A stretch of DNA of 64,000 bases from Clostridia bacterium (GTDB taxonomy: Bacteria; Bacillota; Clostridia; DUPQ01), in the NCBI GenBank assembly GCA_016935835.1, contig JAFGQE010000158.1, positions 2,256 through 66,255 on the forward strand, read 5' to 3'. The notes beneath the pieces were generated by a model that was not told where the DNA came from, did no database searches, and saw nothing but the letters and a program-made list of their open reading frames with translations. Shown here in pieces: positions 24,294-52,736 of this stretch. The stretch's first letter is position 1; the number at the start of each line of letters is the position of its first letter. Both the position numbers and the translations under genes were made by a program.

Positions 24294-24299
24294 GCTGTT

Positions 24300-26943: not shown

Positions 26944-27028
26944 AAAGCCCCGGGATTGTCGGCCGGTCGATTTGTATTCAGGGAAGCCCGGTTCACGTGC
27001 AAAGAGCCGGGAAAAGAAGAGGCAATTC

Positions 27029-31631: not shown

Positions 31632-32883
31632 GGATTCTGCTTTGGAATTCCTCCGGGAAATACTGGAGGACTTTCTTTATGGCTGTTGGCGCTGCCTGTC
31701 CCAGGCCGCAGATGGATGCCTCGCTCATTGTTTCAATAAGTATCCCAAGCAAGGCCAGGTCCTTTTCGACGGCGACGCCTTCTATGAAACGGTCGAGAAG
31801 TATAAGCGTCTGAGCAAGCCCTTCACGGCAGGGAGTGCATTTGCCGCAGGATTCATGATGAAAGAACCCGATTATCCTTTTTAAAATATCAAGCACATTA
31901 ATTCTTTCATCCATAACAATTATTGCACCGGAACCGAAATTGAGGTCGTTCTCCCTCATTGAGGCATAATCAAGGGGGAGGTCCGACATATCAGATGGAA
32001 TCACCGGGCCGGATGCGCCGCCGAGCTGTATCATCTTGATTTCGCGATTGTTCGGGATGCCTCCGCCGAGGCCATATATTATGTCTTTTATGGAAGTTCC
32101 GAAAACAACTTCGTAAAGACCCGGCCTGACAACATTTCCGCTCAGGCATACAAGCTTTGTTCCCTTCGAGGAATCAGTGCCGATTTTTGAGAACTCCGCC
32201 CCGCCCATTTCAATGATGTGTGGAATATTGCAAAACGTCTCCACATTGTTGATCTGTGTCGGCTTGTTGTAAAGCCCGCATGTCGTCGGGAAAGGAGGCT
32301 TGTATGTGGCGCGGCCTGATTTGCCCTCGATAGTCACAAGAAGAGCAAACTCCTCGCCGCAGACATAGGAGCCGGCTCCCGTATACACATCAATGTCGAA
32401 ATCGAAGCCGGCGTCAAGGATATTATCCCCTAAAAAGCCGCGTATCCTCGCCTGTTCAAGCGCTTTTTCAACCATTGCCGCCGCACGCGCATATTCGCCC
32501 CTGATGAAGATATACCCATGCTTTATACCTGTCGCATAAGCGCATATTATGATGCCCTCGATCAATTGATGGGGATCGTTTTCCATCAGATACCTGTCCT
32601 TGAAATTCCCGGGTTCGCCCTCGTCGGCATTACAGATGATGTATTTGGGAGATCCCCCGGCCTCTTTTACCGCCTGCATTTTAAGTCCTGTTGGAAATGC
32701 CGCGCCCCCGCGGCCCTTCAGGCCGGAGTTTTTAATTTCATTGATTATATCGCCGCCGCTCATTGCGAGAGCTTTCCTCAGTGAATCATATCCCCCGCGG
32801 GAAATATAGTCGTCAATGGACCCGGGATTGATTTCACCAAATCTTTTTGTCAGCAATTTTCTGACACATGCATTTTTATTCAT
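31606..32883 (-). CDS. hydB: NuoF-like NADH-binding flavoprotein subunit of bifurcating hydrogenase (HydB)
   Basis: 425 aa. FMN/NADH-binding NuoF core with the N3 cluster motif [12 protein letters not shown]. No C-terminal ferredoxin domains. Confidence 0.8.
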   Translation of the reverse strand: MNKNACVRKLLTKRFGEINPGSIDDYISRGGYDSLRKALAMSGGDIINEIKNSGLKGRGGAAFPTGLKMQAVKEAGGSPKYIICNADEGEPGNFKDRYLMENDPHQLIEGIIICAYATGIKHGYIFIRGEYARAAAMVEKALEQARIRGFLGDNILDAGFDFDIDVYTGAGSYVCGEEFALLVTIEGKSGRATYKPPFPTTCGLYNKPTQINNVETFCNIPHIIEMGGAEFSKIGTDSSKGTKLVCLSGNVVRPGLYEVVFGTSIKDIIYGLGGGIPNNREIKMIQLGGASGPVIPSDMSDLPLDYASMRENDLNFGSGAIIVMDERINVLDILKRIIGFFHHESCGKCTPCREGLAQTLILLDRFIEGVAVEKDLALLGILIETMSEASICGLGQAAPTAIKKVLQYFPEEFQSRIHATDSAAV

Positions 32884-33340
32884 GGCTTTTCCTCCTGTGT
32901 TCGGCCAGAACCGAGGATATTTTTTCCGCCGTCAGGTTTCCATACAGATTGTCCCCGATTTGCATCGCCGGGGCCTTGTCGCAGCATCCCAGGCAACTCG
33001 AGTACTCAAGCGAGAACAAGCCGTCGTCCGTTGTCTGGCCCATCTTGGTTTTTAATCTTTGCTCAAGCTCAATGACCACATTCGTTGAATTGTTGACATA
33101 ACAGGGAACATCATGGCAAACCTGTATGATGTATTTCCCCCTGGGTTTTGTCGACAGAAGCGAGTAGAAGGATGCCACACTGTGAACCCTGCTTTCAGGA
33201 AGCCCGGTTTCTTTTGCGAATTCCCTTATGTCCTCCTGCGTCAGATAATTGCATGGCGTGGTTTTTTGATAAGCCAGCATAGCCCCGATAAGTTTGTCCG
33301 GCGTCCTGCCGAATTTTTCAAGCGCCTCCTTGACCTGCAT
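32876..33340 (-). CDS. hydC: NuoE-like 2Fe-2S thioredoxin-fold subunit (HydC)
   Basis: CHDVPCYV...CLGCCDKAP are the NuoE-type Cys ligands. Confidence 0.75.
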   Translation of the reverse strand: MQVKEALEKFGRTPDKLIGAMLAYQKTTPCNYLTQEDIREFAKETGLPESRVHSVASFYSLLSTKPRGKYIIQVCHDVPCYVNNSTNVVIELEQRLKTKMGQTTDDGLFSLEYSSCLGCCDKAPAMQIGDNLYGNLTAEKISSVLAEHRRKSHE

Positions 33341-36542: not shown

Positions 36543-37613
36543 TCATTTGATCCCGGGTGGAAGCATAACCGCAAAGCGGCAGACCGGGTCGCCCCGAAGC
36601 GCTGATTGAAGCAACTCAACCCCAAGCTCCGTGCCAAGAATCACCTCGAATGGGAATTTTTCAAATCCGGCGCTGCAATAACACCAGTCGGAATCTATGT
36701 TTTCGCGGCTTTCGTCAAGAATGCGCTCCCTTGCGAAAGGGCAGTGGCAGGCATAGTAAGATTTTAAAACAGGATCCGTGGATTTTAGAAAATTGATGCC
36801 GTCGTAGGGTATTTTTGTCATATAAAGTTTTCCGCCGTCCCTTACGGCTGAAAGAATCTCCTGATTTGAACTGACGTAATCAACCACTTCCTGCGTTATC
36901 TCCTGTTCATACCATATCTTTCCGATGTTGCAATATTCCTGCAATTCAGCGACATTGCGCGCATGTCGTCCCGCAAGGTATTCATCGAGCGAAGAAGATT
37001 CCTCGTACAGCCGCTTTTCCTCCTGCATCGCGGATTCGGGCAGGCCGTGGTTGTTGCCGGCGAGAATCTTTTTATAAAGTGAAGGTTCAATACTTGCCTT
37101 GAGACGGTCCATGAATCTTGCTGTGAATGCCGGCATGTCGCCCGGAGCCGTCCCAAGGGGAATTTCCAAAAGCCCCGAAAAAACTTTCTCCACCGCTTCT
37201 TCTCCGGCATAGGCCAGCATCCGGTTTTTTATACTTTCGATGACGCCGATTCCGCCCAAAATACGGGTGAAGTATATGTATGCACCGTGATTGTTTGCCA
37301 CATGACAATACCTTGCCAATGCCAGGAGCAAGGGCAGGTTTATTTTGCCGGATTCAAAAAGCGCAGCGATATATTTCTCTATTTGACCAGGGGAGGCGGT
37401 TTCGACCGAAACACCGTATATTTTCAAATATGAATCCATTTCCCTGGCATCGGCGACTGCAAGGTCTGCCGCGGAATCATCATAACCTCTGCTTTTATAA
37501 AGATCCCTCAGTTGTTTCTCAAGCATGTTCTTCTCCCGTCCATCATCCGGCCGGTTCTGTCCTGTCCACGGTTCCGTCGGACTTGTAGTAGGTCCTGATG
37601 CCGGAACCGGCAT
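36543..37613 (-). CDS. hypothetical protein with Cys-rich C-terminus
   Basis: C-terminal CHCPFARE...CYCSAGFE...C; no recognisable family. Start uncertain. Confidence 0.3.
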   Translation of the reverse strand: MPVPASGPTTSPTEPWTGQNRPDDGREKNMLEKQLRDLYKSRGYDDSAADLAVADAREMDSYLKIYGVSVETASPGQIEKYIAALFESGKINLPLLLALARYCHVANNHGAYIYFTRILGGIGVIESIKNRMLAYAGEEAVEKVFSGLLEIPLGTAPGDMPAFTARFMDRLKASIEPSLYKKILAGNNHGLPESAMQEEKRLYEESSSLDEYLAGRHARNVAELQEYCNIGKIWYEQEITQEVVDYVSSNQEILSAVRDGGKLYMTKIPYDGINFLKSTDPVLKSYYACHCPFARERILDESRENIDSDWCYCSAGFEKFPFEVILGTELGVELLQSALRGDPVCRFAVMLPPGIK

Positions 37614-40377
37614 ATTCCTTCCAGATCATGATGTCGTTTTCATACAGATACTTTTCCGCATAACCCGCGTTGTTGTACCCATATTCCCATATTCCGCTCT
37701 TTTTACCATCAGTGTAATAGCCGATTGTATGGATTGAATCGTATTGCCCGGTGCCTGTTGCATAAATGTGATATATTCCATCCGGCACCCCCGCCTTGTA
37801 GCCTATCTCGCTTTTTATGGTTCCGTCCTCAAGATAGGCAAGCCATACGCCGTCTTGCTTACCATCAAGATATGCGCCTGTGAACTCAGTGTTTCCGTTG
37901 CTGTAGTTGCGCTGCGCCGGTCCTGTTTTCAATCCTCTTTCATATGTCGTGATTTCATTCAAAGTACCGTCCTCATAATATGACTCAACCTTGCCATGGT
38001 AAATTCCGTCGCTGTACTCCTGAATAAAGGAAATTCGGCCGTTTTCATAATATGAAACCGACGTCCCGTCTTTCTTCCCGTTCAATTCGCCGTATGAAAT
38101 TTTTAAATCCCCGTTGTCATAATACAATTTTATATCGGACCGGACATCCGGGCCGGCATGGCTGTTCTGAACCTCGCGGATCAGTATTCCGTTTCGGTAT
38201 GTATATGATTCAAGTTCCTCCTCCATGTCATATATCACATAGGTCGGGTCGCCGTTGTACAGCGTTGTGTTGAGGCCGTCCCTTTTGTTGGCCTGTACCT
38301 GCATTATGTATGCTATTTTCTCCTGTTCCTTTGGATCCCCTGGCTGCCTGAACCTTACCGCCGTCCGGCGGTCAATGGTTTTGTCTTCCGTCCTGACCTC
38401 AAACAGAATGCTGTTTTCATAAGAACCGTACCGTATCGCAAATATGCCCCTGTCCCTGTCCCCGGGGAAGCGATATGTATATTCGATGGTGTCCGTATAA
38501 ATCCTTGTTTCCCATCCGACTGGATCATTGTTTTCGTCAAGATACCTTATTCCGGTCAGCCGGCCTTCTGAATCCTTCGATTCTTCCTTTTTGAAATCAC
38601 CATAGTCAAGCAGATCGGTCCATCCGTAGATCAGCTTGATGATATCTGCATTTTCCATTCCCGCATCTATCTCCAGGATGGTCTGATAAAAACCGTATAT
38701 ATGCGATATGTCGGTATTGCCGGCGTCTTCCGACGGTTCCATGGAAGGGGTTGGTTCGGAAGATGCGCCCGGAGCAGATGAAACGGAGGACCCCGGTACA
38801 TGCGTTGCGGGTGGTGAGGATGATGAAGAGGGAGACGGGCCGGAGGCCTCTGATTCGTTTTTATCATCCGTAACTTCAATCCCGAACGCATTGAGAAGCC
38901 CGATGAGATCTTCCTTTTCAAAACTGCGGCCGTTCAGGGTATCAATGGAATTCTTCCACCCATTGAATGTATCAATCAATTCATCGGCCTTTGTGCTGAC
39001 TATAGCATTGATAAACCTGCCTTTGCTGTCTCCGAGGGTTACCTCAAGGTCATTCTGTATCAGATCCGTTATTTCAGCCACTTGGCCTGCGGAAAATTTA
39101 TCCTTGTTTTTATCCAGCTGCGCCAATAGAAGTTTTTGGATCAAGTAGTATTTCGCGGTGTCGGTAGGGACGAAGAAAAGGACATTCTGACCATTTTGAA
39201 TGGCTTCAAGAAGAAGCGCTCTCTTATTTTCAGCCTCAGCCTGGGCGGCGGCCATGACGGTGGAATCGTCCGATAATTCAAATGCCGCAGACGGTTCAAC
39301 GGCGGGATTTGCATTATAGGGCAAGCCGTCTTGCGCAATCCCGTCTTTGATATCGGACAGCGCGGCGCTAAAGTCGTCAAGGGCTGCATTTTCACCGCTG
39401 CTGAATTTATCTTTATTTATGTCGCCGGTCGCATCGGCGACAGCTATTCCCGCACCCAGGAATGACAGCCCTTGTTCTTCTGCCATGACTTTACCCAGAA
39501 GGGAAAAGCCTTTGCGGGCTTCTGGAACCGGCACGAGGGTCAAAGGAATTATTTGGGTTGCCTTAATTTGCTCAATAAGAGATTCGCATAAAGCTATTTC
39601 ATCGCTTGAAAGGGAATCGCCGTCCATTGATTTGAGGTTCTCCAGCAAACGCTCCGATTCATCCAGATAGTAGCCGGAGACATAGTAATCCGCGGAGACA
39701 ATGTATGAATGCATTCTTGAGGCCTTATCATATTCAAACAACATTTTATCCAGGCCGGGCTCAATTTTCTTGCGGTACACTGAAGCCGAGGAGGACAGCA
39801 GTCGTTCGGTCTGCCGAAGGCTGGTTTCGCCCAGAATGATGCTAACGGCCGCTGTATCGGCCATTAGTTCGGCCAGATACCCGTTCTGTCGCTCAATCAG
39901 GCGGCAGACCGCAAAGACCAGATATGAATCAATTACGGCTGATACGGCTTTGTTGCTGGATTTTGCCTTAAGGTATGTCCGGATTTCGGTCTCAAGGGAT
40001 CCGAGGATGGTTTTATAGGCAATTATATTTTCCGCCGCGGATGATATAAAATCAATTTGGCCGGGGGAGGGATTGGTTATTTTATCAATATACCCGAGCA
40101 GGTTGTCCTCATATTTTTCCATTCCATCAGTGACTCGAAAACAAAAACCCGAAGTTTCCCGGATGGAATCAATGAAAATATCGACGGCTTTCCCTCGGGA
40201 GCCAAGAAAGGTCTTCTCATCCTTGTTTCCGGGGCGAAGCTGCCCGGTGTAAAGGTAGCCGGAGGCCAGATGGTTCGAGAAATCCTCCCCCGGGGAGATG
40301 CGTGACGACAGGCAGCCGCCGAATGACGCGGCCATGAAGCAAATAATCAATAAAAGCGAAAGTTTTTTCATAATCAT
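37543..40377 (-). CDS. large lipoprotein with Ser/Pro-rich linker and C-terminal MORN-like (YwqK-type) repeats
   Basis: Lipobox MAASFGG|C. A low-complexity GPSPSSSSSPPATHVPGSS linker. About 8 tandem Y..G......Y..G....G repeats. Confidence 0.5.
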   Translation of the reverse strand: MIMKKLSLLLIICFMAASFGGCLSSRISPGEDFSNHLASGYLYTGQLRPGNKDEKTFLGSRGKAVDIFIDSIRETSGFCFRVTDGMEKYEDNLLGYIDKITNPSPGQIDFISSAAENIIAYKTILGSLETEIRTYLKAKSSNKAVSAVIDSYLVFAVCRLIERQNGYLAELMADTAAVSIILGETSLRQTERLLSSSASVYRKKIEPGLDKMLFEYDKASRMHSYIVSADYYVSGYYLDESERLLENLKSMDGDSLSSDEIALCESLIEQIKATQIIPLTLVPVPEARKGFSLLGKVMAEEQGLSFLGAGIAVADATGDINKDKFSSGENAALDDFSAALSDIKDGIAQDGLPYNANPAVEPSAAFELSDDSTVMAAAQAEAENKRALLLEAIQNGQNVLFFVPTDTAKYYLIQKLLLAQLDKNKDKFSAGQVAEITDLIQNDLEVTLGDSKGRFINAIVSTKADELIDTFNGWKNSIDTLNGRSFEKEDLIGLLNAFGIEVTDDKNESEASGPSPSSSSSPPATHVPGSSVSSAPGASSEPTPSMEPSEDAGNTDISHIYGFYQTILEIDAGMENADIIKLIYGWTDLLDYGDFKKEESKDSEGRLTGIRYLDENNDPVGWETRIYTDTIEYTYRFPGDRDRGIFAIRYGSYENSILFEVRTEDKTIDRRTAVRFRQPGDPKEQEKIAYIMQVQANKRDGLNTTLYNGDPTYVIYDMEEELESYTYRNGILIREVQNSHAGPDVRSDIKLYYDNGDLKISYGELNGKKDGTSVSYYENGRISFIQEYSDGIYHGKVESYYEDGTLNEITTYERGLKTGPAQRNYSNGNTEFTGAYLDGKQDGVWLAYLEDGTIKSEIGYKAGVPDGIYHIYATGTGQYDSIHTIGYYTDGKKSGIWEYGYNNAGYAEKYLYENDIMIWKEYAGSGIRTYYKSDGTVDRTEPAG

Positions 40378-40857: not shown

Positions 40858-41070
40858 AATATCACCGCTTTCATAATCATTTTATCACTAAAATATCATT
40901 AATAGAACAATAGCGGGCTTTCTGATGTTCAGAGCGCGGCGGTTATTTTGCAGGGGAAAACAGGTGAAACGTAAAAAGATGGGCAATAGGCCGGCTGTGG
41001 CTTTGAAAAACATCCGCAAGCATATATAATGGATGTAATCAGAAGGAATACATAGCTTCGGGGGGTTGCA

Positions 41071-42024
41071 TTGGATTTGAAGTCAATCTTTCAAAAACAA
41101 AAAACGATGCGCAGGGTCCTGTATAGCCTGATGCCGGTGGTGCTTTATTCGGTATACCTTTTCGGACTAAGGACGTTGGCTGTAATTGCGGTTGTAACGG
41201 CATGCGGGGTTGTTTCCGAATATCTCATAATGAGGAATATCAACGGAGCCGGGGCAAAGGTAAGCGAGGCCGCCCTGGTCAGCAGCGTTCTGTTTGCGCT
41301 GACGCTTCCCCCGTCGGTTCCTTTTTGGGTGGCCGGCACGGGAATTATTTTTGGCATTGTATTTGCCAAGGGAGTATTCGGCGGATTCGGAAGGAATATT
41401 TTCAACCCCGCCCTTGCCGGCAGATGCTTCATCTACATATCATTCCCGGCATTCATGACTATAAGCTGGACAAAGCCGTTCACGGGATTTCCCGGGGGGC
41501 TTTTGCGATATTTCAATTCCGTGGATGCATCAACATCAGCAACGCCGCTTCTGAGTTTCAACAGCACGGGTGAAATGACGGGTTATTGGCGCCTGGCATT
41601 CGGAGGGATTTCCGGATCGATGGGGGAAACCGCGGCATTGCTGATTCTTGCCGCCGCAATATATCTTATAGCAACAAAAACAGCCTCATGGAAAATAATG
41701 GCATCATGCGTCACCGGCTTCATGGCGCTGACCATGGTTTTGTATTTTACCGGGGTAACTGCCGCGGACCCGCTGTTTTCGCTGCTTGCGGGCGGTTTTA
41801 TGTTCGGAACGGTCTTCATGGCCACCGACCCGGTATCGGCCCCAAAAACGGATTCCGGCAGAATCATATATGGGGCAATGATCGGCATCCTGACCTGTGT
41901 CATCAGGATATTCGGATTGTTTGTAGAAGGGGTCATGTTTGCGATTCTAATCTCAAATATGTTTGTGCCTTTGCTCGAAAGAAACCTTTCGGCGCTCAAG
42001 GCGCGGAAAAAGGCGGCCGCATGA
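41071..42024 (+). CDS. RnfD/NqrB-family subunit
   Basis: 317 aa. NPALAGR motif and flavinylation motif DASTSATPL. Confidence 0.75.
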   Translation: MDLKSIFQKQKTMRRVLYSLMPVVLYSVYLFGLRTLAVIAVVTACGVVSEYLIMRNINGAGAKVSEAALVSSVLFALTLPPSVPFWVAGTGIIFGIVFAKGVFGGFGRNIFNPALAGRCFIYISFPAFMTISWTKPFTGFPGGLLRYFNSVDASTSATPLLSFNSTGEMTGYWRLAFGGISGSMGETAALLILAAAIYLIATKTASWKIMASCVTGFMALTMVLYFTGVTAADPLFSLLAGGFMFGTVFMATDPVSAPKTDSGRIIYGAMIGILTCVIRIFGLFVEGVMFAILISNMFVPLLERNLSALKARKKAAA

Positions 42025-42602
42025 AGAAAGGATATATCTATACAATAATATTCATAATGGCCGTAAGCATTGTTTTTTCGGGATTGCTGGCTGTTGTCAA
42101 CGCAGCCTTTAAAAACAGGATTGAAATCAATGAAAAGGCGGCCGGTCAAAAATCAATCCTGTATGCGATGGGATTTGATTCGGAGGGCATGGATGCAGTC
42201 GATTTCTTTGAACAGAATGTGGTCGAGAGAAAATCCGGGGATGTCGCTTACTATGCCGCCAGAACCGCAGAAGGATCCATGGTTTATGCGGTTCCGTTCG
42301 CCGGGTCGGGGCTTTGGGGCACGATCAAGGGATATATCGGAATTGACGGAAGCTTTACCCGGATGATTGGAATCGCATTCACCGAACAAAACGAAACGCC
42401 CGGACTCGGGGGAAGGATTGACGAGGAGTGGTACAAGGAGCAGTTCAGGGGAATATCCCTTGAAGGAGATGTTTCATACGGCGGGGATTCGGGGATAGAT
42501 GCAATAACCGGGGCGACTTCGACCTCAAACGCCGTTTTGAATATCCTCAATGAATTCATGTCGACAACCCTGAAGGAAGTGGAGGCGGCCGGTGAAGAAT
42601 GA
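42021..42602 (+). CDS. RnfG/NqrC-family FMN-binding subunit
   Basis: Single N-terminal TM, then an FMN-attachment motif ITGATSTS. Start at ATG 42021 overlapping the upstream stop (ATGA); the ORF-track N-terminal extension is rejected. Confidence 0.7.
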   Translation: MKKGYIYTIIFIMAVSIVFSGLLAVVNAAFKNRIEINEKAAGQKSILYAMGFDSEGMDAVDFFEQNVVERKSGDVAYYAARTAEGSMVYAVPFAGSGLWGTIKGYIGIDGSFTRMIGIAFTEQNETPGLGGRIDEEWYKEQFRGISLEGDVSYGGDSGIDAITGATSTSNAVLNILNEFMSTTLKEVEAAGEE

Positions 42603-43209
42603 TTTGAGAACGGTTTTCTACAGGAATCTATGGAAGGAAAATCCGGTGATAAGGCAGATCCTGGGTATTTGCTCCGCGCTGGCCGTAACGAACAGGGTGG
42701 ACAACTCGCTTGTAATGGGAATCGGGCTTATGTTTGTAACCGCTTTTTCAAGCCTTACGCTTTCAGCGCTGAGAAATTCCATTCCGGACAGGATCAGGAT
42801 GATAGTGCAGACACTGGTCATAGCCGCGTATGTGATTATCGTTGATATTTTGATCAAGGCCGGGCTTCCCGAAATAAGCAAGGCCCTTGGGCCTTATGTG
42901 GGCTTGATAATAACGAACTGCATAATAATGGGAAGGGCGGAGGCCTTTGCGAGAAAGAATCCCCCCGTAATATCATTCTTCGACGGATTGTTCGCAGGCA
43001 TAGGTTATACCATAATATTGCTTTGCATCGCACTTGTCAGGGAAATCCTGGGATTCGGGACCGTATTCGGCTACAACGTAAATTTCCTAAATTTTACAAA
43101 CTGGACGATAATGGTGGTTCCGCCCGGTGCATTTTTCATGATAGCGATACTTATATGGATATCATCGGGAGCAATGGACCGAAGGCTCAGGAAAAAGGAA
43201 AGAAGCTAA
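42592..43209 (+). CDS. RnfE/NqrD-family subunit
   Basis: 205 aa six-TM protein with an RnfE/NqrD-type N-terminus (NPVIRQILGICSALAVT). Confidence 0.8.
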   Translation: MKNDLRTVFYRNLWKENPVIRQILGICSALAVTNRVDNSLVMGIGLMFVTAFSSLTLSALRNSIPDRIRMIVQTLVIAAYVIIVDILIKAGLPEISKALGPYVGLIITNCIIMGRAEAFARKNPPVISFFDGLFAGIGYTIILLCIALVREILGFGTVFGYNVNFLNFTNWTIMVVPPGAFFMIAILIWISSGAMDRRLRKKERS

Positions 43210-43224
43210 AGGAGGAAACGGAAT

Positions 43225-43821
43225 ATGACTTCTCCGGAAATAAGTCCATTTATAATATTTTTTGCTTCAATCATAACCAGCAACATGGTTCTGGCCAACT
43301 TCCTGGGCATGTGCTCGTTTATTTCGGTTTCAAATGAATACAAGACCGCATCGGGGCTTGGCAAGGCGGTGACGCTTGTGATGGTGTTCACCACCGTTAT
43401 AAATTTCGCCGTATATAAATTCCTCATAGTGCCGCTTGAACTTGAATATCTTAGATATGTCATATTCATCATTGTAATTGCCGCATCGGTTCAGGTAATC
43501 GAACTTGCGATGGACAGGTTCCTGCCGGAGCTTCATATAAAACTCGGCATATTCCTGCCCCTGATAACCGTAAATTGCGCGATACTCGGAATCAGCCTTT
43601 TCATGGTAATAAGGAATTACAATTTTGCACAGTCGCTTCTGTTTGGAATTGGAAGCGGCCTCGGCTGGTGGCTTGCCATATCTACTCTGGCGGCCATCAG
43701 GGAAAAGACGGGGAAGAATAAAATACCCAAGGGCCTTGAAGGACCCGGCCTGACTTTCATCATCATAGGATTGATGGCGCTGGCCTTCATGGGATTTTCG
43801 GGTATGTTCGCAATACAATGA
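43225..43821 (+). CDS. RnfA/NqrE-family subunit
   Basis: 198 aa with an NqrE/RnfA-like N-terminus (IIFFASIITSNMVLANFLGMCSF). Confidence 0.8.
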   Translation: MTSPEISPFIIFFASIITSNMVLANFLGMCSFISVSNEYKTASGLGKAVTLVMVFTTVINFAVYKFLIVPLELEYLRYVIFIIVIAASVQVIELAMDRFLPELHIKLGIFLPLITVNCAILGISLFMVIRNYNFAQSLLFGIGSGLGWWLAISTLAAIREKTGKNKIPKGLEGPGLTFIIIGLMALAFMGFSGMFAIQ

Positions 43822-43844
43822 CAGCAATGCTTTGACAAGACGGA

Positions 43845-44948
43845 GTGAAGATGGAGATACTTAAGACAATATTGGGCATAACCGGAATTTCAACCGTTTT
43901 GGCGGTGTTCATTATAGTTGCCGAGAAATTCCTGAACAACTACGGAGAGTGCGGAATTGACATCAACGACGGAGGCAAGCTGCTCAAGGTTGACGGGGGG
44001 GTATCTCTTCTTTCGGCTCTTGCTTCAAATAAAATATTCATACCCTCGGCATGCGGCGGGAAGGCGACGTGCGGGCTGTGCAAGGTGAAGGTGCTCGATG
44101 GAGCGGGGCCGGTGCTGCCTACAGAAGAACCTTATTTAAACAAACAGGAACTGCAGGAGGGAGTCCGCCTGTCGTGCCAGGTCAGAATTAAAAAGGACCT
44201 CAGGATATACATTCCCGAAGAGCTTTTCAATATAAAGGAATTCAATGCAACCGTAACCCGGATCACGGACCTGACAAGGGACATCAAGGAATATCGTTTT
44301 GATTTCAGGGAAGGCGAGGAAATATCATTCAGGGCCGGGCAATATATGCAGATTGAGACAAAGCCGTACGGCAAGGTAAAGGAGAGGGCGATAAGGGCAT
44401 ATTCCATTTCATCCCCGCCATCGGACAAGAAGGGCGTCGAGCTTATAATCAGAAAGGTTCCCGGAGGCGTGTGCACGACTTATATGCATGATCATGTCAG
44501 GGAAGGCGACGAAATAAGGATCACCGGTCCATACGGGGAATTCTATATGCGCGATGATTCGGATGACTATGTCTTCATGGCCGGCGGTTCTGGAATGGCT
44601 CCAATAAAGTCCATAATATCGGATATACTCGAGAAAAAGCTGGACAAGAAAATGATATTCTTTTTCGGTGCGGTCACAAAAAAAGATCTTTTCCACACGG
44701 AATTCTTCAGGGAACTTGAAAAAAAGCACGATAATTTCAAATATGTGCCTGCACTGTCAAATCCCGGTCCCGATGATGATTGGGAAGGGGAGGCCGGCCT
44801 TGTCACGGATGTAATGAAAAGATATGTGGAAACGGGAAGGGACAGGCATGCGTACCTGTGCGGCAGCCCCGGTATGATCAATGCTTGCATAAAGGTGCTG
44901 ACCTCCATGGAATTTGATGAAAGCAAGATATTCTACGATAAGTTTTAG
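43845..44948 (+). CDS. nqrF: NqrF-like subunit (TM anchor + 2Fe-2S ferredoxin + FAD/NADH-binding FNR domain)
   Basis: Co-linear similarity to Vibrio NqrF: SACGGKATCGLCKV, RAYSISS, GPYGEFY and GGSGMAPI blocks. Confidence 0.8.
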   Translation: MKMEILKTILGITGISTVLAVFIIVAEKFLNNYGECGIDINDGGKLLKVDGGVSLLSALASNKIFIPSACGGKATCGLCKVKVLDGAGPVLPTEEPYLNKQELQEGVRLSCQVRIKKDLRIYIPEELFNIKEFNATVTRITDLTRDIKEYRFDFREGEEISFRAGQYMQIETKPYGKVKERAIRAYSISSPPSDKKGVELIIRKVPGGVCTTYMHDHVREGDEIRITGPYGEFYMRDDSDDYVFMAGGSGMAPIKSIISDILEKKLDKKMIFFFGAVTKKDLFHTEFFRELEKKHDNFKYVPALSNPGPDDDWEGEAGLVTDVMKRYVETGRDRHAYLCGSPGMINACIKVLTSMEFDESKIFYDKF

Positions 44949-44959
44949 AGGGTGATTTT

Positions 44960-45418
44960 ATGAAGCAGGGGCCAAGGCTGGAGATGATACAGGAAAACAT
45001 GAAGCCCGGGGCGTATACGGCCCATGGTTTTCTCGGTGATGACGACCGCATGCTCAAGGACATTCTCAGGGAAGACAATTCGGCCGTTGAAAGGCACGGG
45101 ATATCACACGGGGAAATCGCGGCGAAAATGCGGTATTTCACGGAAATCGGCAGGCGTTTCCCAGAATCAACTGTAACCGACGGGGATTTCGAGATTACCG
45201 TGGACGACCACAGGGGATTCATACCGTGCCCATTCGCAGACAATGAAAAAGCATTGAAGACAAACACAAGGCTTTACAACAAAAGGACGGGGGAAACGGT
45301 GTACTGGTCCGACCTCAACATACACATGATCATGAGTCATGGATTCTACGAAGGAAAGGGTTCCTTTTTCAGGACCGGGCCGGTCGAACTGGCAAAAACA
45401 CTCGGGCTGATCGATTGA
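44960..45418 (+). CDS. hypothetical soluble protein downstream of nqrF
   Basis: 152 aa with no recognisable motifs. Confidence 0.3.
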   Translation: MKQGPRLEMIQENMKPGAYTAHGFLGDDDRMLKDILREDNSAVERHGISHGEIAAKMRYFTEIGRRFPESTVTDGDFEITVDDHRGFIPCPFADNEKALKTNTRLYNKRTGETVYWSDLNIHMIMSHGFYEGKGSFFRTGPVELAKTLGLID

Positions 45419-45439: not shown

Positions 45440-45823
45440 ATGTACTTTGTCTACAAATATCTGGGATGGGTCAACATAGGCCTTCTAGTCCTTATACTGG
45501 CACACTTCGTTCTGAGAAGAATAAACAGGATCGGGTTTTCCAATAAAAATAAATTTCTAAAAAAAGCGGCTGCATTCATGTCGAAGATACATACTTATTT
45601 GACCATCGTACTTACGGCGACGGCATTTTTCCACGGCTTTAACCTGGCCGGGGGAATACGTTTTCACAGCGGCTACATAGCATTCATAGCCATCCTTCTG
45701 CAGGCAACGGCCGGGGCGCTTGTCAAGGCCCGGAAGAAAAAGCCGTTTCTCGCAGTCCACAGGCTGACGGGCCTCCTTCTTGCGGCGACAGTCATAATCC
45801 ACGTGATAATAATGAAAACATGA
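45440..45823 (+). CDS. hypothetical four-TM membrane protein
   Basis: Hydrophobicity pattern only. Confidence 0.3.
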   Translation: MYFVYKYLGWVNIGLLVLILAHFVLRRINRIGFSNKNKFLKKAAAFMSKIHTYLTIVLTATAFFHGFNLAGGIRFHSGYIAFIAILLQATAGALVKARKKKPFLAVHRLTGLLLAATVIIHVIIMKT

Positions 45824-45890: not shown

Positions 45891-46739
45891 GTGGTCGGAA
45901 TGAAAAAAATCAAGAAAATATTTAATGCGGCGGAAACACAGGACGGAGCCGGGGTGAAGCTTAACAGGGTGTTCGGATTCAATGAAATTCCAGGGTTTGA
46001 TCCATTTCTTCTCCTTGATTACTTTTCCACGGATAATCCAAGGGATATTGAAAAGGGATTCCCATGGCATCCGCACAGGGGTATCGAAACCATTACTTAC
46101 ATATTGAAGGGAGAGGTCGAGCATCAGGACAGCCTTGGCAACAAGGGGGTGATCGGGCCGTCCGAAGTACAGTGGATGACGGCCGGAAGCGGAATCATAC
46201 ACCAGGAGATGCCCGTAACGGCCGGCGGCAAGGGAATGGAGGGCTTCCAGCTTTGGCTCAATCTGAAGTCGACGGACAAAATGATTTATCCGCAATACGG
46301 CGATATAAAGGCGGACATGATTCGAATTGTTGAAGAACCCGGCCTGACCGTGAAAGTCATCGGGGGGACATACAAAAAGACGGAAGGTCCCGTCAGGAGG
46401 GATTCCCTTGGAGTGGTGCTGCTCGATATGGAAATGCAACCGGAATCGGAGTACACGCATGTAACCGATGAAGGAAAAAACACATTCATTTTTGTTTTCA
46501 AGGGTCATGGCTTTTTCGGGGACCCGGCTGAAAAAGTTTCCCGGAAACAAGCCGCGGTCTTCAGCGGAGACGGCGGTATCAGAGTCAAGGCCATTGACAA
46601 TATGAGGTTCCTGCTCTGCGAGGGATACCCGCTTGACGAGCCGGTATCATGGGGAGGCCCGATAGTCATGAATACAAGGGAGGAGCTCCGCACGGCATTC
46701 AGGGAATATGATGAGGGCAATTTTATAAAACACAAATAG
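45891..46739 (+). CDS. pirin-family cupin protein
   Basis: HPHRGIETITYILKGEVEHQDSLGN...AGSGIIHQEMP are pirin signature regions. Confidence 0.8.
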   Translation: MVGMKKIKKIFNAAETQDGAGVKLNRVFGFNEIPGFDPFLLLDYFSTDNPRDIEKGFPWHPHRGIETITYILKGEVEHQDSLGNKGVIGPSEVQWMTAGSGIIHQEMPVTAGGKGMEGFQLWLNLKSTDKMIYPQYGDIKADMIRIVEEPGLTVKVIGGTYKKTEGPVRRDSLGVVLLDMEMQPESEYTHVTDEGKNTFIFVFKGHGFFGDPAEKVSRKQAAVFSGDGGIRVKAIDNMRFLLCEGYPLDEPVSWGGPIVMNTREELRTAFREYDEGNFIKHK

Positions 46740-46914: not shown

Positions 46915-48432
46915 ATGGACAGACCGAACATACTTCTCATATTTGCCGACCAGTGGAGGGGCGATTTCCTGGGAAACCTCGGCCATAAGGTCAGGACGCC
47001 TTTTCTAGACCAACTGGCGGGGGAGGGAATGTCATATACCTCTGCGTACAGCGCCACCCCGAGCTGCATTCCGGCCAGGGCCAGCCTCCTTACCGGGATG
47101 AGCGGATCTTCCTGCAACAGGCTCGGATATATGGACGGGGTTCCGTGGAAATATCCCGTTACCATGCAAGGATGCCTGCGGGATGCGGGTTATCTTACGA
47201 TTAATGTCGGAAAGACCCATTATTATCCACGAAGGGCAGGACTCGGCTTTGAAATAAACAGGTTGTACGACCCCCAGAACTGGCTTGATGGCGAACAAAG
47301 CGATTATCATGCATGGCTTTTTGAACAGACCGGCGGGAAAATCAAGGATACGGCGGATGTCATCGACAACAACGGATTCTGTTATATTCCATGGACGCAT
47401 GATACCTGTCTGCATCCAACGGAATGGACCGCCGCCACAGCCATAGAAGAATTGAAAAAAGCCGACGACGGCAGGCCTTTCTTCATGCAGATTGGATTCC
47501 ATCGTCCGCACCCCCCGCTGGATCCGCCGCCCGCATATTATGATATGTACAGGGATGTCGATTTCGGCGAGGCTCCTGTCGGAGACTGGGAACCGGAGGA
47601 ATACAGGCGGGCGGCGTCAGGCAATGCCCCGATGATAGGTACAAAGAACGAAGAGGACAGGCAGACAGCCATCAGGGCGTACTGTGCGCTTATCACTCAC
47701 ATAGATCATCAGATAGGCAAATTGCTGTATTATCTGCAAAGGCATGAACACACAAAGAATACGATTATCATTTTCACCAGCGATCATGGAGACTTGCTGG
47801 GTGACCATGGCACATGGAGAAAAATATTCCCTTACGAGGGTTCGTCAAAAATTCCTCTTATCATCAGGACGCCCGATACGGCAATCAACACGGTTAACAC
47901 AACCTCAGGATACCGAAGGGTCGAAACGCCGGTCACCCATATGGATATTATGCCGACGGTATTAAAGGCGGCAGGGGTTTTGGTGCCGGACAATGTCGAG
48001 GGCACGGACATAATGGGGCCTCTTTACGGAAGGAAGATCGAAGGAAGGGAATTCATCCACGGGGAGCATGCCAGTAGTCTTATCGGAGTTCAGTTTGTAA
48101 CTGACGGCAGATACAAGTATTGTTATGACACTGTGCATGGACGCGAGCAGTTGTTCAATCTTCAGGAAGACCCCCGGGAACTCAGGAATCTGGCCGGATT
48201 GAAGGAATATGAAGCGGAACATGCCTTTTGGAAAAGAAAGCTTATCGATATCCTTTCGGCCCGGCCCGGCGACGGCTTGGTAAGGGACGGGGAGCTGGTC
48301 ACGGGAGTAGAACTCCCTTCGATCAGAAAAGAGCTTTTGGATGGGATTGACCCGGATGAGATTCACATAAATGCGCGAAAAGGAATCGAAAAGTATTTCG
48401 GCGCGGATTTTTTCAAAATGACTGAAAAATGA
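46915..48432 (+). CDS. Cys-type sulfatase (third)
   Basis: LLIFADQWRGD...SATPSCIPARASLLTGMS (CxPxR). Confidence 0.8.
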   Translation: MDRPNILLIFADQWRGDFLGNLGHKVRTPFLDQLAGEGMSYTSAYSATPSCIPARASLLTGMSGSSCNRLGYMDGVPWKYPVTMQGCLRDAGYLTINVGKTHYYPRRAGLGFEINRLYDPQNWLDGEQSDYHAWLFEQTGGKIKDTADVIDNNGFCYIPWTHDTCLHPTEWTAATAIEELKKADDGRPFFMQIGFHRPHPPLDPPPAYYDMYRDVDFGEAPVGDWEPEEYRRAASGNAPMIGTKNEEDRQTAIRAYCALITHIDHQIGKLLYYLQRHEHTKNTIIIFTSDHGDLLGDHGTWRKIFPYEGSSKIPLIIRTPDTAINTVNTTSGYRRVETPVTHMDIMPTVLKAAGVLVPDNVEGTDIMGPLYGRKIEGREFIHGEHASSLIGVQFVTDGRYKYCYDTVHGREQLFNLQEDPRELRNLAGLKEYEAEHAFWKRKLIDILSARPGDGLVRDGELVTGVELPSIRKELLDGIDPDEIHINARKGIEKYFGADFFKMTEK

Positions 48433-48641: not shown

Positions 48642-49130
48642 ATGTGCAATAACAGTTTGGCGGAAGAAAAATTCAAGGAGCTTGACGCATTTATCGACGG
48701 GCTTGAGGAAGACGAGGGCAATCTCATAGTTATCCTGCACAAGGCGCAGAATCTATTCGGATACCTGCCCAGGGAAGTGCAGCTGCATGTCTCGAGAAAA
48801 CTCAAACTGTCCGCCGCAAAGGTCAACGGGGTGGTTACTTTTTATTCCTACTTTACGGAAGAACCAAAGGGGCAGCACGTTATTTCAGTCTGCATGGGAA
48901 CTGCATGCTTTGTCAGGGGAGCGAGCGACATACTGTCATCCCTGCAGGAAAAACTCGGTATAAAATGCGGAGAGACGACAAAGGACGGCAAGTTTACGAT
49001 AGATTCACTGCGTTGCGTGGGTGCATGCGGGCTGGCCCCGGTCGTAATAGCCGACGGCAGGGTCCACGGCAGGGTTGAAATCGACGATCTTGACAAGATT
49101 CTTGTCGAACTTGAGAGCGGGGTAAGATAG
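48642..49130 (+). CDS. hndA: NuoE-like 2Fe-2S subunit (HndA)
   Basis: CMGTACFVRG...CVGACGLAPV are NuoE-type ligands. Confidence 0.75.
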   Translation: MCNNSLAEEKFKELDAFIDGLEEDEGNLIVILHKAQNLFGYLPREVQLHVSRKLKLSAAKVNGVVTFYSYFTEEPKGQHVISVCMGTACFVRGASDILSSLQEKLGIKCGETTKDGKFTIDSLRCVGACGLAPVVIADGRVHGRVEIDDLDKILVELESGVR

Positions 49131-49131
49131 G

Positions 49132-49518
49132 ATGATAAAAATAAAAAGTTTTAATGAACTGAAGGAGCTTAAGGAAAGCCTTAACGCCCAAAGGGAGCAC
49201 ATCCGTATAATAGTCGGCATGGCTACCTGCGGGATGGCAGCGGGTGCCGGGGAAGTATTCGATTCAATAGCAGGCGAGATCATGAGACAGGGATTGAAGA
49301 ATGTAACCGTCGTAAGGTCCGGCTGCATGGGGGCATGCCATTCCGAACCAACCGTTGAAATAGTAAAGCCCGGCGAAGATCCCGTATTGTACGGGAATGT
49401 CGACAGTTCGAGGGCCAAGGTCATTATAAGCAATCACATAATGCGGGGTGAGATTGTAGAGGAGCTTGTGCTTGAGAAGAACTATGAAACGGCAAGCCTT
49501 GGGGAGGTGGAGCAATGA
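49132..49518 (+). CDS. hndB: small thioredoxin-like 2Fe-2S ferredoxin subunit (HndB)
   Basis: 128 aa. CGMAAG...[10 protein letters not shown]. Confidence 0.65.
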
Positions 49519-50981
49519 GCGGTCATAAGCAACTGAGGATAGCGTTGAGAAACTGCGGGGTCATCGATCCCGAGAACATATTGGAATATATAGCCCGCGG
49601 CGGCTACATGGCGCTTGGGAAGATTCTTGACGAGATGGCGCCAGAAGACGTTATCGATGAATTGAAGAAAAGCGGACTGCGCGGAAGGGGCGGCGGCGGA
49701 TTTCCCACGGGATTGAAACTTGAATTCGCCCGCAGGAACGAAGGCGAAAGAAAATATATCATATGCAATGCCGACGAAGGGGATCCGGGCGCATTCATGG
49801 ACAGGAGCATACTGGAGGGAGACCCCCAGTCAATACTGGAAGCAATGGCGATATGCGGTTACGCCGTAGGTGCGAATGAAGGCTATGTGTATATAAGGGC
49901 GGAATACCCGCTTGCAATAGAACGTCTCACAATTGCAATCAGGCAGGCATACGAGGCGGGATTGATCGGCGATGATATCATGGGAAGCGGGTTCTCATTC
50001 GACATCAAGATAAAATACGGGGCGGGTGCGTTTGTTTGCGGAGAAGAGACGGCATTGATCAGCTCTGTCGAGGGAAACAGGGGCGAACCGCACTTCAAGC
50101 CGCCTTTCCCGGCGGAAAAAGGCCTTTGGGGAATGCCTACGACTGTAAACAATGTCGAGACTCTGGCGAACATACCGTCAATATTCAATATGGGTGCCGG
50201 CCGGTTTGCCGAAATAGGAACGAAAACAAGCAAGGGAACCAAGGTTTTCGCCCTTGCCGGTAACGTAAACAAGGTCGGCCTTGTAGAAGTTCCCATGGGC
50301 ACTACCCTCAGGGAAATAGTTTACGACATAGGCGATGGCATTGTCGGAGGCAAGAAATTCAAGGCGGTTCAGACAGGGGGTCCTTCGGGGGGGTGCATAC
50401 CCGAACAGTTCCTCGACATCCCGATTGATTATGAAAGCCTCAAGGAAATAGGCTCGATGATGGGTTCGGGAGGAATGATCATAATGGACGAAGACACCTG
50501 CATGGTCGATATAGCGAAGTACTACCTTGAATTTACGACCGATGAGTCCTGCGGAAAATGCACGCCGTGCAGAATAGGCAACAAGAGGCTATATGAAATC
50601 CTCTGCAAGATAACAAAGGGAGAAGGAACCGAGGAGGACCTTGACAGCCTGAAGGAATTGGGCGGGATTATAAAGGACACCTCGCTGTGCGGACTGGGCC
50701 AGACGGCCCCGAATCCGGTTCTCAGTACAATGAAGTATTTTTACGACGAATATCTTTCCCATGTCAGGGATAAGAAATGCCCGGCGGGAATATGCAGCAG
50801 CCTTACCAGGTATGAGATAATCGCTGACAAGTGCATAGGCTGCACGATGTGCGCCAAGGCATGCCCGACCGCATGCATTTCCGGTAAAGTAAGGGAACCC
50901 CATAAGATTGACCAGGCAAAGTGTATAAAATGCGGAGCGTGCTTCAAGGCATGCAAATTCGACGCCATATTGAAAAGCTGA
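49515..50981 (+). CDS. hndC: NuoF-like NADH-binding subunit with C-terminal 2x[4Fe-4S] domain (HndC)
   Basis: NuoF core motif [12 protein letters not shown], then [12 protein letters not shown]...[11 protein letters not shown]. Confidence 0.85.
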
Positions 50982-50993
50982 GGAGTTTGATTA

Positions 50994-52736
50994 ATGAAGA
51001 AAGTAAATGTTACGATAAACGATATAAAGATTGCGGTTCCGGAAAACTATACGGTTCTTGAGGCCGCAAGGGAAATCGACGTTGAGATACCGACGCTTTG
51101 CCACCTGAACCTGCACGACCTGAAGGCTGTAAACAGAAGCGCGTCCTGCAGGGTTTGTGTAGTGGAAATAGAGGGCAGGGGAACGCTGGCTCCATCCTGC
51201 TCAACATATGTCGCAGAGGGCATGGTAATAAAAACACACACGCCCAGGTCGGTAAAGGCACGCAGAACCATGGTTGAACTCCTGCTCTCGGACCATCCCA
51301 AGGATTGCCTTGTCTGCGAAAAGAACCAGCGATGCGAACTTCAGAAGCTGGCCGCCGACCTGTGCGTCAGGGAGATAAAATATACCGGCGCGCAATCGAC
51401 TTATGAGATAGACAACTCAAGCCGTTCGATTTACAGGAACCTTGACAAATGCATACTCTGCAGAAGATGCGAAACCATGTGCAACGAAGTGCAGACATGC
51501 GGCATCCTGTCGGGAATGGACAGGGGATTCGAAACCGTCGTGGGCCCGGCGTTCGGACTGCCGATGATTGACACGATGTGCACATTCTGCGGGCAATGCG
51601 TGGCGGTTTGCCCGACGGCGGCGCTTACCGAGATAAATCAGATCAGGGAAGTCTGGGATGCGATAAACGATCCCGAAAAAATCGTAGTGGTGCAGACTGC
51701 GCCCGCTGTCAGGGTTGCGCTGGGCGAGGAATTCGGCATGGAGGCAGGTACGATTGTAACCGGAAAGATGGCGGCCGCCATGAGAAGACTGGGATTTGAC
51801 CGCGTATTCGACACGGATTTCGCGGCAGACCTGACCATCGTGGAAGAGGCATCTGAATTCATACACAGGCTCAGGCACGGAGGAACTCTTCCGATTCTGA
51901 CAAGCTGCTGCCCGGCCTGGGTCAAGTTTTTCGAGCACCAGTTTCCCGACCTGCTTGACATACCGTCGACATGCAAATCACCCCATGAGATGTTCGGCAC
52001 CGTCGTAAAGACATATTACGCCGCGAAGATGAAGATAGACCCTGAAAAGTTGGTGGTCGTATCTGTCATGCCGTGCCTTGCAAAGAAATACGAGGCGGCC
52101 CGCCCCGAACTGAATACAAACGGCATGCAAAACGTCGATTATGTCATTTCCACAAGGGAAGCTGCAAAGATGATAAGGGAAGCGGGAATCAATTTTGTCG
52201 ACCTGCCGGACGAGGATTTCGACAACCCGCTTGGAGAATCAACCGGAGCCTCGGTAATATTCGGAACCACCGGGGGTGTAATTGAAGCCGCCCTTAGAAC
52301 AGCATGCGACTGGCTTACCGGGGAATCGCTTGAAAAAGTTGATTACCATCAGCTCAGGGGACTTGAGGGAATCAGGGAAGGAACTGTCAAGATCGGCGAT
52401 ATGGAAGTAAGGATTGGCATTGCACACGGACTTGGAAATGCGAGAAGACTTCTTGAAGATATAAGGTCAGGGAAATCGACATATCACGCAATAGAGATAA
52501 TGGCATGCCCCGGAGGCTGCATTGGCGGGGGCGGACAGCCGTACCATGGCGGCGACGAGGGGATAATAAAGAAAAGGGCCGATGCGATTTATAGAGAGGA
52601 CCAGGGGAAGGCAAAGCGCAAATCCCACGAAAACGAAAATGTAATTGAACTTTACAGGGATTATCTGGGCGAGTATTACGGTGAGAAGGCGCATGAGTTG
52701 CTGCACACAAGCTACCAGAAGCGGGAATTGATATAA
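50994..52736 (+). CDS. hydA: [FeFe] hydrogenase catalytic subunit (HndD/HydA)
   Basis: Canonical L1 TSCCPAW, L2 MPCLAKKYE, L3 EIMACPGGCIGGGGQP. Confidence 0.9.
   Translation: MKKVNVTINDIKIAVPENYTVLEAAREIDVEIPTLCHLNLHDLKAVNRSASCRVCVVEIEGRGTLAPSCSTYVAEGMVIKTHTPRSVKARRTMVELLLSDHPKDCLVCEKNQRCELQKLAADLCVREIKYTGAQSTYEIDNSSRSIYRNLDKCILCRRCETMCNEVQTCGILSGMDRGFETVVGPAFGLPMIDTMCTFCGQCVAVCPTAALTEINQIREVWDAINDPEKIVVVQTAPAVRVALGEEFGMEAGTIVTGKMAAAMRRLGFDRVFDTDFAADLTIVEEASEFIHRLRHGGTLPILTSCCPAWVKFFEHQFPDLLDIPSTCKSPHEMFGTVVKTYYAAKMKIDPEKLVVVSVMPCLAKKYEAARPELNTNGMQNVDYVISTREAAKMIREAGINFVDLPDEDFDNPLGESTGASVIFGTTGGVIEAALRTACDWLTGESLEKVDYHQLRGLEGIREGTVKIGDMEVRIGIAHGLGNARRLLEDIRSGKSTYHAIEIMACPGGCIGGGGQPYHGGDEGIIKKRADAIYREDQGKAKRKSHENENVIELYRDYLGEYYGEKAHELLHTSYQKRELI

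Follow-up and report, generated by a model that had tools for sequence, protein, structure and literature searches.

Analysis of a 64,000-nucleotide (nt) stretch of DNA from a Clostridia bacterium (contig JAFGQE010000158.1; hereafter the window, within which all positions are counted) revealed a six-gene operon on the + strand. It consists of nqrB-C-D-E-F followed by a gene for a 152-residue protein, here called x152, and would encode an Nqr-type pump without NqrA. Two members are known of this unique family of redox-driven ion pumps, Rnf and Nqr, and their structures are well described. A first-pass annotation of the locus had described five co-directional, tightly packed genes with overlaps and an upstream gene on the opposite strand. 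The open reading frame (ORF) listing and profile searches agree with this description, and a Pfam scan identified the upstream neighbour of subunit B as a minus-strand cytidine/tRNA-type deaminase. The same annotation had set x152 aside and proposed a minimal five-subunit complex, a view that has to be given up. As x152 is a constant sixth member of operons of this kind, the operon unit ends at 45418 and not at 44948.

The evidence for a sixth gene comes from its linkage to nqrF. x152 was found directly 3′ of nqrF in all 10 NqrF-anchored loci (nine Clostridia metagenome-assembled genomes (MAGs) and one Kiritimatiellota MAG), and it also follows nqrF in three loci reached from distant x152 homologues, one of them in a Planctomycetota MAG. 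In a set of 95 loci, nqrF lies immediately upstream of x152 in 70/70 loci with at least 1.2 kilobases (kb) of upstream sequence, and the full B-C-D-E-F-x152 block is present in 43/43 loci with at least 4.3 kb. The gap between nqrF and x152 has a median of 19 nt. In the window x152 starts 11 nt past the nqrF stop and has its own Shine-Dalgarno sequence (GAGGGTG). The downstream gene had been termed unrelated, which is contradicted by this ribosome-binding site and by its place after nqrF in every one of the 70 loci. The linkage spans Clostridia, Spirochaetota, Planctomycetota, and Kiritimatiellota; a second x152 subfamily comes from Spirochaetota MAGs (the homologue search matched MAG entries only, mostly from Spirochaetota).

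The absence of the classical cytoplasmic subunits was found to be as regular as the presence of x152. Pfam scans covered the 39 largest ORFs of the window, with about 14 smaller or obvious ORFs outside the scan, and none of the 39 was NqrA, RnfC, RnfB, or ApbE. Upstream of B, no NqrA or RnfC was found in 43/43 complete related loci, whose upstream neighbours vary from locus to locus, and no RnfC or RnfB adjoined the operon in the related loci examined. Neither apbE nor nqrM occurs within the operon. The original description of an NqrF-driven complex of the Rnf/Nqr family without NqrA, RnfC, and RnfB is thus borne out by the scanned ORFs and the related loci. A mis-assembled boundary hiding one of these genes had also been considered; neither nqrA nor rnfC appears at the boundary in the 43 independent contigs, and the shared layout of these contigs rules out an assembly artefact. 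For cultured carriers, genome analyses report that nqrA is absent and that the electron acceptor is unknown (PMC4148951, PMC5924567).

The five remaining subunits retain the cofactor sites of Nqr, where conservation is defined as identity in at least 95% of 48 family members. Subunit B (PF03116, 4.7e-91) keeps the flavinylation site, with D152 and T158-P159 in DASTSAT158P, as well as D253, which aligns with D346 of Vibrio NqrB, a residue that hydrogen-bonds riboflavin (PMC10643135). Subunit C consists of an N-terminal membrane anchor and an extracytoplasmic domain binding flavin mononucleotide (FMN) (PF04205, 1.2e-16), in which T163-G164-A165 are conserved and T166 comes next in the window protein, completing the TGAT flavinylation motif. 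D retains C27 and C110 together with acidic residues D85 and D131, and E retains C30, C118, and E93. The four cysteines, D Cys27/Cys110 and E Cys30/Cys118, are the predicted ligands of an intramembrane 2Fe-2S cluster. In F, a transmembrane anchor is followed by a 2Fe-2S ferredoxin domain (C70, C76, C79, C111) and by an FNR domain (RAYS, GGSG) for flavin adenine dinucleotide (FAD) and reduced nicotinamide adenine dinucleotide (NADH), and all of these residues and motifs are conserved. Moreover, acidic residues B E303, D D131, and E E93 align with NqrB D397, NqrD D133, and NqrE E95, which Juarez et al. reportedly linked to Na+ transport in Vibrio in 2009. Both flavinylation threonines named in the first-pass annotation were therefore recovered as conserved family features (B T158 and the TGAT motif of C), and its opinion that the complex looks functional still fits, because all cofactor-binding motifs are intact.

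Compared with Vibrio NqrB, subunit B lacks about 90 residues at its N-terminus. B aligns to the nqrB profiles only from position ~108-121 and to the Vibrio NqrB chain from residue 154. In Vibrio the N-terminal amphiphilic helices AH-I and AH-II close the ubiquinone pocket (PMC10643135); the helices bearing L26, A29, and L33 have no counterpart in B, and the pocket residues F159/F160 are A68/L69.

In comparisons with PDB structures, most of the core was closer to Nqr than it was to Rnf. The scores of C, D, and E are higher with NqrC (50.6 bits), NqrD (172.9), and NqrE (179.9) than with RnfG (31.4), RnfE (145.8), and RnfA (163.8), respectively. F has no Rnf match; it reaches 228.9 bits with V. 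cholerae NqrF, with which it is co-linear except for a deletion of ~27 residues, and 153.3 bits with the best non-Nqr reductase. The affinity of B is ambiguous, with 154.5 bits to Nqr (residues 63-305 only) and 160.2 bits to RnfD over its full length. NCBIfam models gave a similar division. D passes nqrD (NF006777, 240.2 against a cut-off of 235) and F passes nqrF (TIGR01941, 299.3 against 295), so that F had been rightly called a clear NqrF and not another FNR-family reductase. For E the best family is nqrE (TIGR01940), at 216.6 bits and below the cut-off of 247.6. B scores 250 with the subfamily model rnfD (TIGR01946, cut-off 207) and stays below the cut-offs of the nqrB models; since these models align only from position ~108-121, the rnfD subfamily is the only one that takes in B.

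A neighbour-joining tree was built from concatenated D and E (361 columns) of 48 NqrA-less sequences, with one Nqr (V. cholerae) and one Rnf (Clostridium tetanomorphum) as references. The NqrA-less family was monophyletic, with Vibrio Nqr as sister and Rnf as outgroup (96/100 bootstraps). Over D+E, mean identity of the family is 52% to Vibrio Nqr and 42% to Rnf, and Nqr and Rnf share 43%. With one reference on each side, the sequences thus indicate an Nqr-type core on the Nqr side of the split. The core had earlier been called RnfD-G-E-A-like, which holds for the lengths of the subunits and not for their sequence affinity. The related idea of a hybrid between a Rnf-like core and NqrF does not survive, given the scores of C, D, and E and the grouping of D+E with Nqr. 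The locus had further been likened to an evolutionary intermediate between Rnf and Nqr; against the single Nqr and single Rnf reference, the family instead forms a monophyletic group that is sister to Vibrio Nqr. Since any route from Rnf requires the loss of RnfC/NqrA, an intermediate is no more likely than a derived side-branch.

The five-gene arrangement is not new: NqrBCDEF without NqrA was reported in 2014 for Pseudothermotoga (P. thermarum and P. lettingae) (PMC4148951) and in 2018 for Clostridium ultunense, where an acceptor other than quinone was suggested (PMC5924567). An Nqr-like operon was also shown for Alkaliphilus metalliredigens (PMC5924567), and 'Ca. Izimaplasma' ZiA1 is listed with NqrBCDEF (PMC6256511). 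A 2025 review of RNF and NQR describes NqrA as having no cofactor or assigned function and does not treat NqrA-less operons (PMC12174285). The window locus shares with the published operons the same five-gene order, the lack of nqrA, and an anaerobic host, and very probably is a further member of this class. The corresponding papers list five genes and mention no sixth. Because of the 70/70 linkage in the loci that were read, x152 is expected to follow nqrF in the cultured carriers too. Neither a sixth subunit nor a characterised function was found in the literature covered by our search, outside of which many subscription papers lie; within these limits, what appears to be new is the sixth gene x152 and its links to rubredoxin-type proteins.

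Several known systems resemble the locus in part. It has the B-C-D-E-F order of Vibrio cholerae Na+-NQR, and NqrF of the two systems has the same three-part architecture. Unlike the Vibrio operon, it has neither nqrA nor apbE/nqrM, its C subunit is 64 residues shorter, a sixth gene follows nqrF, and its carriers are strict anaerobes. Rnf (RnfCDGEAB; Clostridium tetanomorphum, Acetobacterium woodii) has a homologous four-subunit membrane core with the same cofactors and similar subunit lengths. However, the NAD+-reducing FMN/4Fe-4S module RnfC and the ferredoxin-oxidising polyferredoxin RnfB are missing here, and the input would be NADH through NqrF. Partial NQR/RNF-like clusters from Actinobacteria and the candidate phyla radiation likewise lack the classical cytoplasmic subunits and contain an NqrF-type NAD-binding domain (Meheust et al., 2021; PMC8238504). 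In those clusters one protein fuses an NqrB/RnfD domain to the NAD-binding domain and there is no D/E pair, whereas in the present locus B, C, D, E, and F are all separate and complete.

x152 is labelled 'hypothetical' in every source. Searches against Pfam, NCBIfam, and PDB sequences gave no match, and when 44 members of the x152 alignment were scanned at E<=1 only scattered noise was obtained. The predicted model of x152 is confident (predicted local distance difference test (pLDDT) score of 92), and no fold match was found among solved structures. The protein has no signal peptide. A profile search of 1.84 billion cluster representatives yielded 1,858 relatives with E<=1e-3, of which 934 reach E<=1e-10. 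x152 thus belongs to a sizeable domain family of ~1,850 clusters at 50% identity which is absent from Pfam. Residues F24, G26, D28, R30, D39, G86, P91, K100, H122, F129, E131, and G132 are invariant, C90 and H127 are near-invariant, and the conserved features include the motif HGF-x-EG-x-G. In the wider family, some proteins are tandem repeats of the domain in 2-4 copies, up to 2,506 aa long (among them P0266, P0191, P0309, and P0221). These repeat proteins and other distant members (P0315, P0336) retain the motifs C-P-[FW] and H-x4-H-x-F-x-E-G. P0315 and P0336 also show a weak match, below the cut-off, to Pfam DUF7919, of which no mention was found in the literature. The domain may also function outside Nqr-like operons.

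Fusions of x152 to redox proteins gave a first indication of its possible partners. They were seen among the longer representatives of the family. In P0212, x152 is followed by a complete rubredoxin, and in P0210 by a rubredoxin with a frameshifted tail; the x152-rubredoxin fusion occurs on two independent contigs from different samples. x152 is joined to a rubrerythrin/ferritin-like domain in P0195 and to a nitroreductase in P0259, and in P0236 a truncated peroxiredoxin lies N-terminal to it. Each fusion is encoded directly after nqrE-nqrF or nqrF on its contig. Downstream neighbours were counted in 74 loci with at least 500 nt of downstream sequence. A separate gene for a rubrerythrin-like protein (146-157 aa, without a rubredoxin domain) directly follows x152 in 8/74 loci, and a rubredoxin lies within 5 kb in 9/74.

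These observations can be combined into a mechanism, which we favour tentatively and regard as possible, though short of probable: an NADH-driven cation pump from which electrons leave via x152 to soluble cytoplasmic redox proteins and not to quinone. Its input and transmembrane loop can be modelled on those of Nqr with good confidence, because every cofactor site is conserved. A hydride from NADH would pass to FAD on the membrane-anchored F, and single electrons would move from the 2Fe-2S cluster of F to the intramembrane 2Fe-2S cluster held by two cysteines each of D and E. From there they would reach the covalent FMN of C, outside the membrane, and return through the covalent FMN and then the riboflavin of B. 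This loop would drive the export of Na+ (or H+), as in Nqr and Rnf. At the exit, x152 would sit on the free cytoplasmic face of B and pass electrons from riboflavin to small soluble redox proteins, which in other lineages might be rubredoxin, rubrerythrin-like di-iron proteins, or nitroreductase. On this view the system would be an energy-conserving NADH:rubredoxin-type oxidoreductase serving the detoxification of peroxide, oxygen, or other compounds. The sequences themselves show the gene content, the conserved motifs, the Nqr affinity, the missing A/C/B-type subunits, the tie of x152 to nqrF, and the fusions; that the complex pumps ions and binds x152, which way its electrons flow, and what accepts them are inferred. 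x152 is placed at the output on B, as a candidate docking subunit in place of NqrA/RnfC, because NqrA/RnfC and the helices closing the quinone pocket have been lost and because cytoplasmic x152 is strictly linked to the operon and repeatedly fused or adjacent to soluble redox proteins.

By an estimate from textbook potentials, NADH and rubredoxin are about 0.3 V apart, which would allow ion pumping. In clostridia, electrons reach rubredoxin, rubrerythrin, or flavodiiron proteins from NADH:rubredoxin oxidoreductase (NROR). This soluble flavoprotein is not known to translocate ions or to be homologous to the Nqr-like system. The overall reaction proposed here is the same, from NADH to rubredoxin-type acceptors, but it would be coupled to a membrane pump. 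A wider claim, that the operons form a third functional class of Rnf/Nqr pumps in which a novel-fold protein of ~150 residues replaces RnfC/NqrA and feeds rubredoxin-type cytoplasmic acceptors, goes further and is at present doubtful.

A number of observations weigh against an exit through x152. A rubredoxin or rubrerythrin-like gene is nearby in only ~20% of loci. Rubredoxin and rubrerythrin are common in anaerobes, and some proximity by chance is expected. In the window itself neither adjoins the operon, and a His-rich membrane protein and a pirin are found there instead. A fusion in a metagenomic gene call can be an artefact of read-through, although the one with rubredoxin was seen in two samples. 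Moreover, x152 has no recognisable cofactor motif, and C90 is replaced by Ser in a few members (L076, L097), which argues against a Cys-ligated metal centre. Reduction of menaquinone at B by a pocket of non-Vibrio type is also conceivable. The 3′ end of the Vibrio nqr operon, the position held here by x152, carries the maturation genes apbE and nqrM (PMC12174285).

Based on that position, x152 could instead be an assembly or maturation factor resembling NqrM or ApbE, the main rival reading, and a five-subunit NqrBCDEF would reduce menaquinone or another membrane acceptor at B. Through its conserved His, His, Glu, and Asp and its mostly conserved Cys, x152 could bind a metal that it then delivers, and no redox-cofactor motif is recognisable in it. 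Structures also put quinone on NqrB and not on NqrA (PMC10643135), so an NqrA-less quinone reductase is conceivable. However, B is without the amphiphilic helices by which the Vibrio quinone pocket is completed, and the genome papers on Thermotoga and C. ultunense held the acceptor to be non-quinone or unknown (PMC4148951, PMC5924567). Fusion to rubredoxin, nitroreductase, or a rubrerythrin-like domain would be surprising in a chaperone, and x152 matches no family in Pfam, a library which should include NqrM and ApbE. An assembly role is accordingly rather unlikely. An exit on the other side of the membrane is improbable. Here NADH electrons would leave at the extracytoplasmic FMN of C for an external or cell-surface acceptor, with B and x152 as accessories. 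C does have an outward-facing FMN domain with an intact flavinylation motif, the partial NQR/RNF-like clusters have been proposed to be unidirectional (PMC8238504), and the carrier A. metalliredigens is a metal reducer (PMC5924567). B is nevertheless always kept, and since its flavinylation Thr, riboflavin-binding Asp, and acidic residues are conserved, the return path must be subject to selection. In addition, x152 lacks a signal peptide, the proteins fused to it are cytoplasmic, and no cytochromes or surface reductases recur beside the operon in related loci.

Two further explanations concern the origin and completeness of the complex. It might be a surviving intermediate, in which a Rnf-like core gained NqrF and had yet to acquire features specific to Nqr. 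The Rnf-like lengths, the passing of the rnfD cut-off by B, and its lack of the NqrB N-terminal extension are compatible with this, as are D, E, and F scoring at or just around the Nqr equivalog cut-offs, as expected of a deep branch, and the position of the family as sister to, and not nested in, the single Nqr reference. Against it, the D+E identity to Clostridium Rnf equals the distance between Nqr and Rnf itself, and therefore the split would postdate the divergence of the Nqr stem from Rnf. An intermediate should also possess an RnfC/NqrA-like gene, the absence of which requires loss in any scenario, and the possession of its own subunit, x152, marks a specialised side-branch; we give this origin little credence. 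Finally, the operon could belong to an ordinary Na+-NQR or Rnf whose missing nqrA, rnfC, or rnfB is encoded elsewhere, given that 64 kb of the genome were inspected and that C. ultunense and P. lettingae also have a complete rnf operon elsewhere (PMC5924567). This is very improbable: 43/43 independent contigs, drawn from several phyla, have the NqrA-less layout, the complete genomes of cultured carriers reportedly contain no nqrA (PMC4148951, PMC5924567), and B has lost an N-terminal region present in all NqrB. A borrowed RnfC would moreover create a futile loop from NADH to NAD+.

The positions of the operon and of other features are given in Table 1. Genes B and C share 4 nt (ATGA), and C and D share 11 nt. 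The predicted promoter agrees with the consensus at 11/12 positions. An intergenic alignment of six related loci shows no change in its -10 box (TATATAAT), in the GGGGG ribosome-binding site, or in the TTG that opens gene B. For nqrF the probable start codon is ATG 43851, with GGAG and a 5-nt spacer in front of it; this gives 365 aa, as in most homologues, whereas GTG 43845 would give 367 aa. No intrinsic terminator was found after x152 on the + strand between 45418 and 48700. A PerR/Fur-like box was sought upstream of the operon and rejected; the best match (40871-40885) has 3 mismatches and sits in the 5′ leader of the divergently oriented deaminase gene, a conserved stretch away from the nqr promoter.

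Table 1. Positions of the operon and of other features in the 64,000-nt window.
Feature	Position	Strand	Description
Sulfatase region	18439-22518 and 46915-48432	+	three sulfatase genes and a radical-SAM/SPASM enzyme
Antiporter cluster	22689-28624	+	Mrp/Mnh-type cation/proton antiporter
HydABC-type cluster	29871-33340	-	NuoE-like, NuoF-like, [FeFe] hydrogenase
MORN-variant and DUF6144 genes	36543-40377	-	944 aa, lipoprotein-like with MORN-variant repeats; 356 aa with DUF6144 C-terminus
Operon promoter (predicted)	41003-41030	+	sigma-70; TTGAAA, 16 nt, TATAAT
Subunit B gene	41071-42024	+	317 aa, NqrB/RnfD homologue, PF03116
Subunit C gene	42021-42602	+	193 aa, NqrC/RnfG homologue, FMN_bind (PF04205)
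Subunit D gene	42592-43209	+	205 aa, NqrD type, Rnf-Nqr
Subunit E gene	43225-43821	+	198 aa, NqrE type, Rnf-Nqr
Subunit F gene (nqrF)	43851-44948	+	365 aa; Fer2, FAD_binding_6, NAD_binding_1
x152	44960-45418	+	152 aa, cytoplasmic, conserved sixth gene
x127	45440-45823	+	127 aa, four predicted transmembrane helices, lineage-specific, downstream of x152
Pirin	45891-46739	+	bicupin, PF02678 and PF05726
HydABC-type cluster	48642-52736	+	NuoE-like, NuoF-like, [FeFe] hydrogenase
6S RNA	62132-62344	+	RF00013

Downstream of x152, the gene x127 begins after 21 nt with a GGAGG Shine-Dalgarno sequence and is probably co-transcribed with the operon. It directly follows x152 in 10/74 loci, all from the window's own clade, and is thus part of this clade's version of the locus and not of the universal core. 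Pfam and NCBIfam gave no match for x127. Residues H22, H51, H65, H76, H107, and H121 are invariant in 12 relatives, and two pairs, H51/H65 in predicted helix 2 and H107/H121 in helix 4, are each 14 residues apart, a spacing typical of di-haem b-type cytochromes. The pirin gene after x127 keeps its position in the same clade (L001-L003, L008, L024, L025, L029, and L030). Pirin and x127 may be this clade's counterpart of the rubredoxin and rubrerythrin partners.

Other genes near the operon are conserved to varying degrees. In close relatives the sulfatase at 46915 keeps its synteny with the nqr-like operon, and the radical-SAM/SPASM enzyme resembles an anaerobic sulfatase maturase. The 944-aa and 356-aa minus-strand genes are kept upstream in close relatives (L002, L008, L024, L025, and L029). 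In the Kiritimatiellota MAG (L011), a 110-aa ORF at 4470-4802, HesB/IscA-like by eye, lies directly upstream of B.

The window belongs to a Clostridia MAG with the locus-tag prefix JXB33. Its predicted gene content, which also includes phosphofructokinase and glycoside hydrolases, marks the host as a fermentative polysaccharide degrader. The two HydABC-type clusters lie on either side of the nqr-like operon, within 20 kb, and have the architecture of electron-bifurcating hydrogenases. The antiporter cluster contains MnhE, MnhG, MbhD-like, and two Proton_antipo_M subunits and would matter for the cycling of Na+ should this be the ion that the Nqr-like complex pumps. The window showed no quinone-dependent enzyme, 64 kb being too small to judge the genome. 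The 6S RNA (75.4 bits against a gathering score of 46.4) was the only Rfam family in the window.

NqrA-less operons have appeared in genome papers for more than 10 years with their acceptor listed as unknown. In at least four phyla these operons never come apart from x152, which offers the best lead to the electron acceptor of the pump. If x152 binds B and the complex reduces rubredoxin, the Rnf/Nqr family would gain a third combination of input and output, NqrA/RnfC would prove to be a replaceable module, and the oxidative-stress defence of anaerobes would be tied to energy conservation. Should these operons indeed form a third class, strict anaerobes would store a Na+ or H+ gradient while detoxifying peroxide, oxygen, and nitro compounds with NADH.

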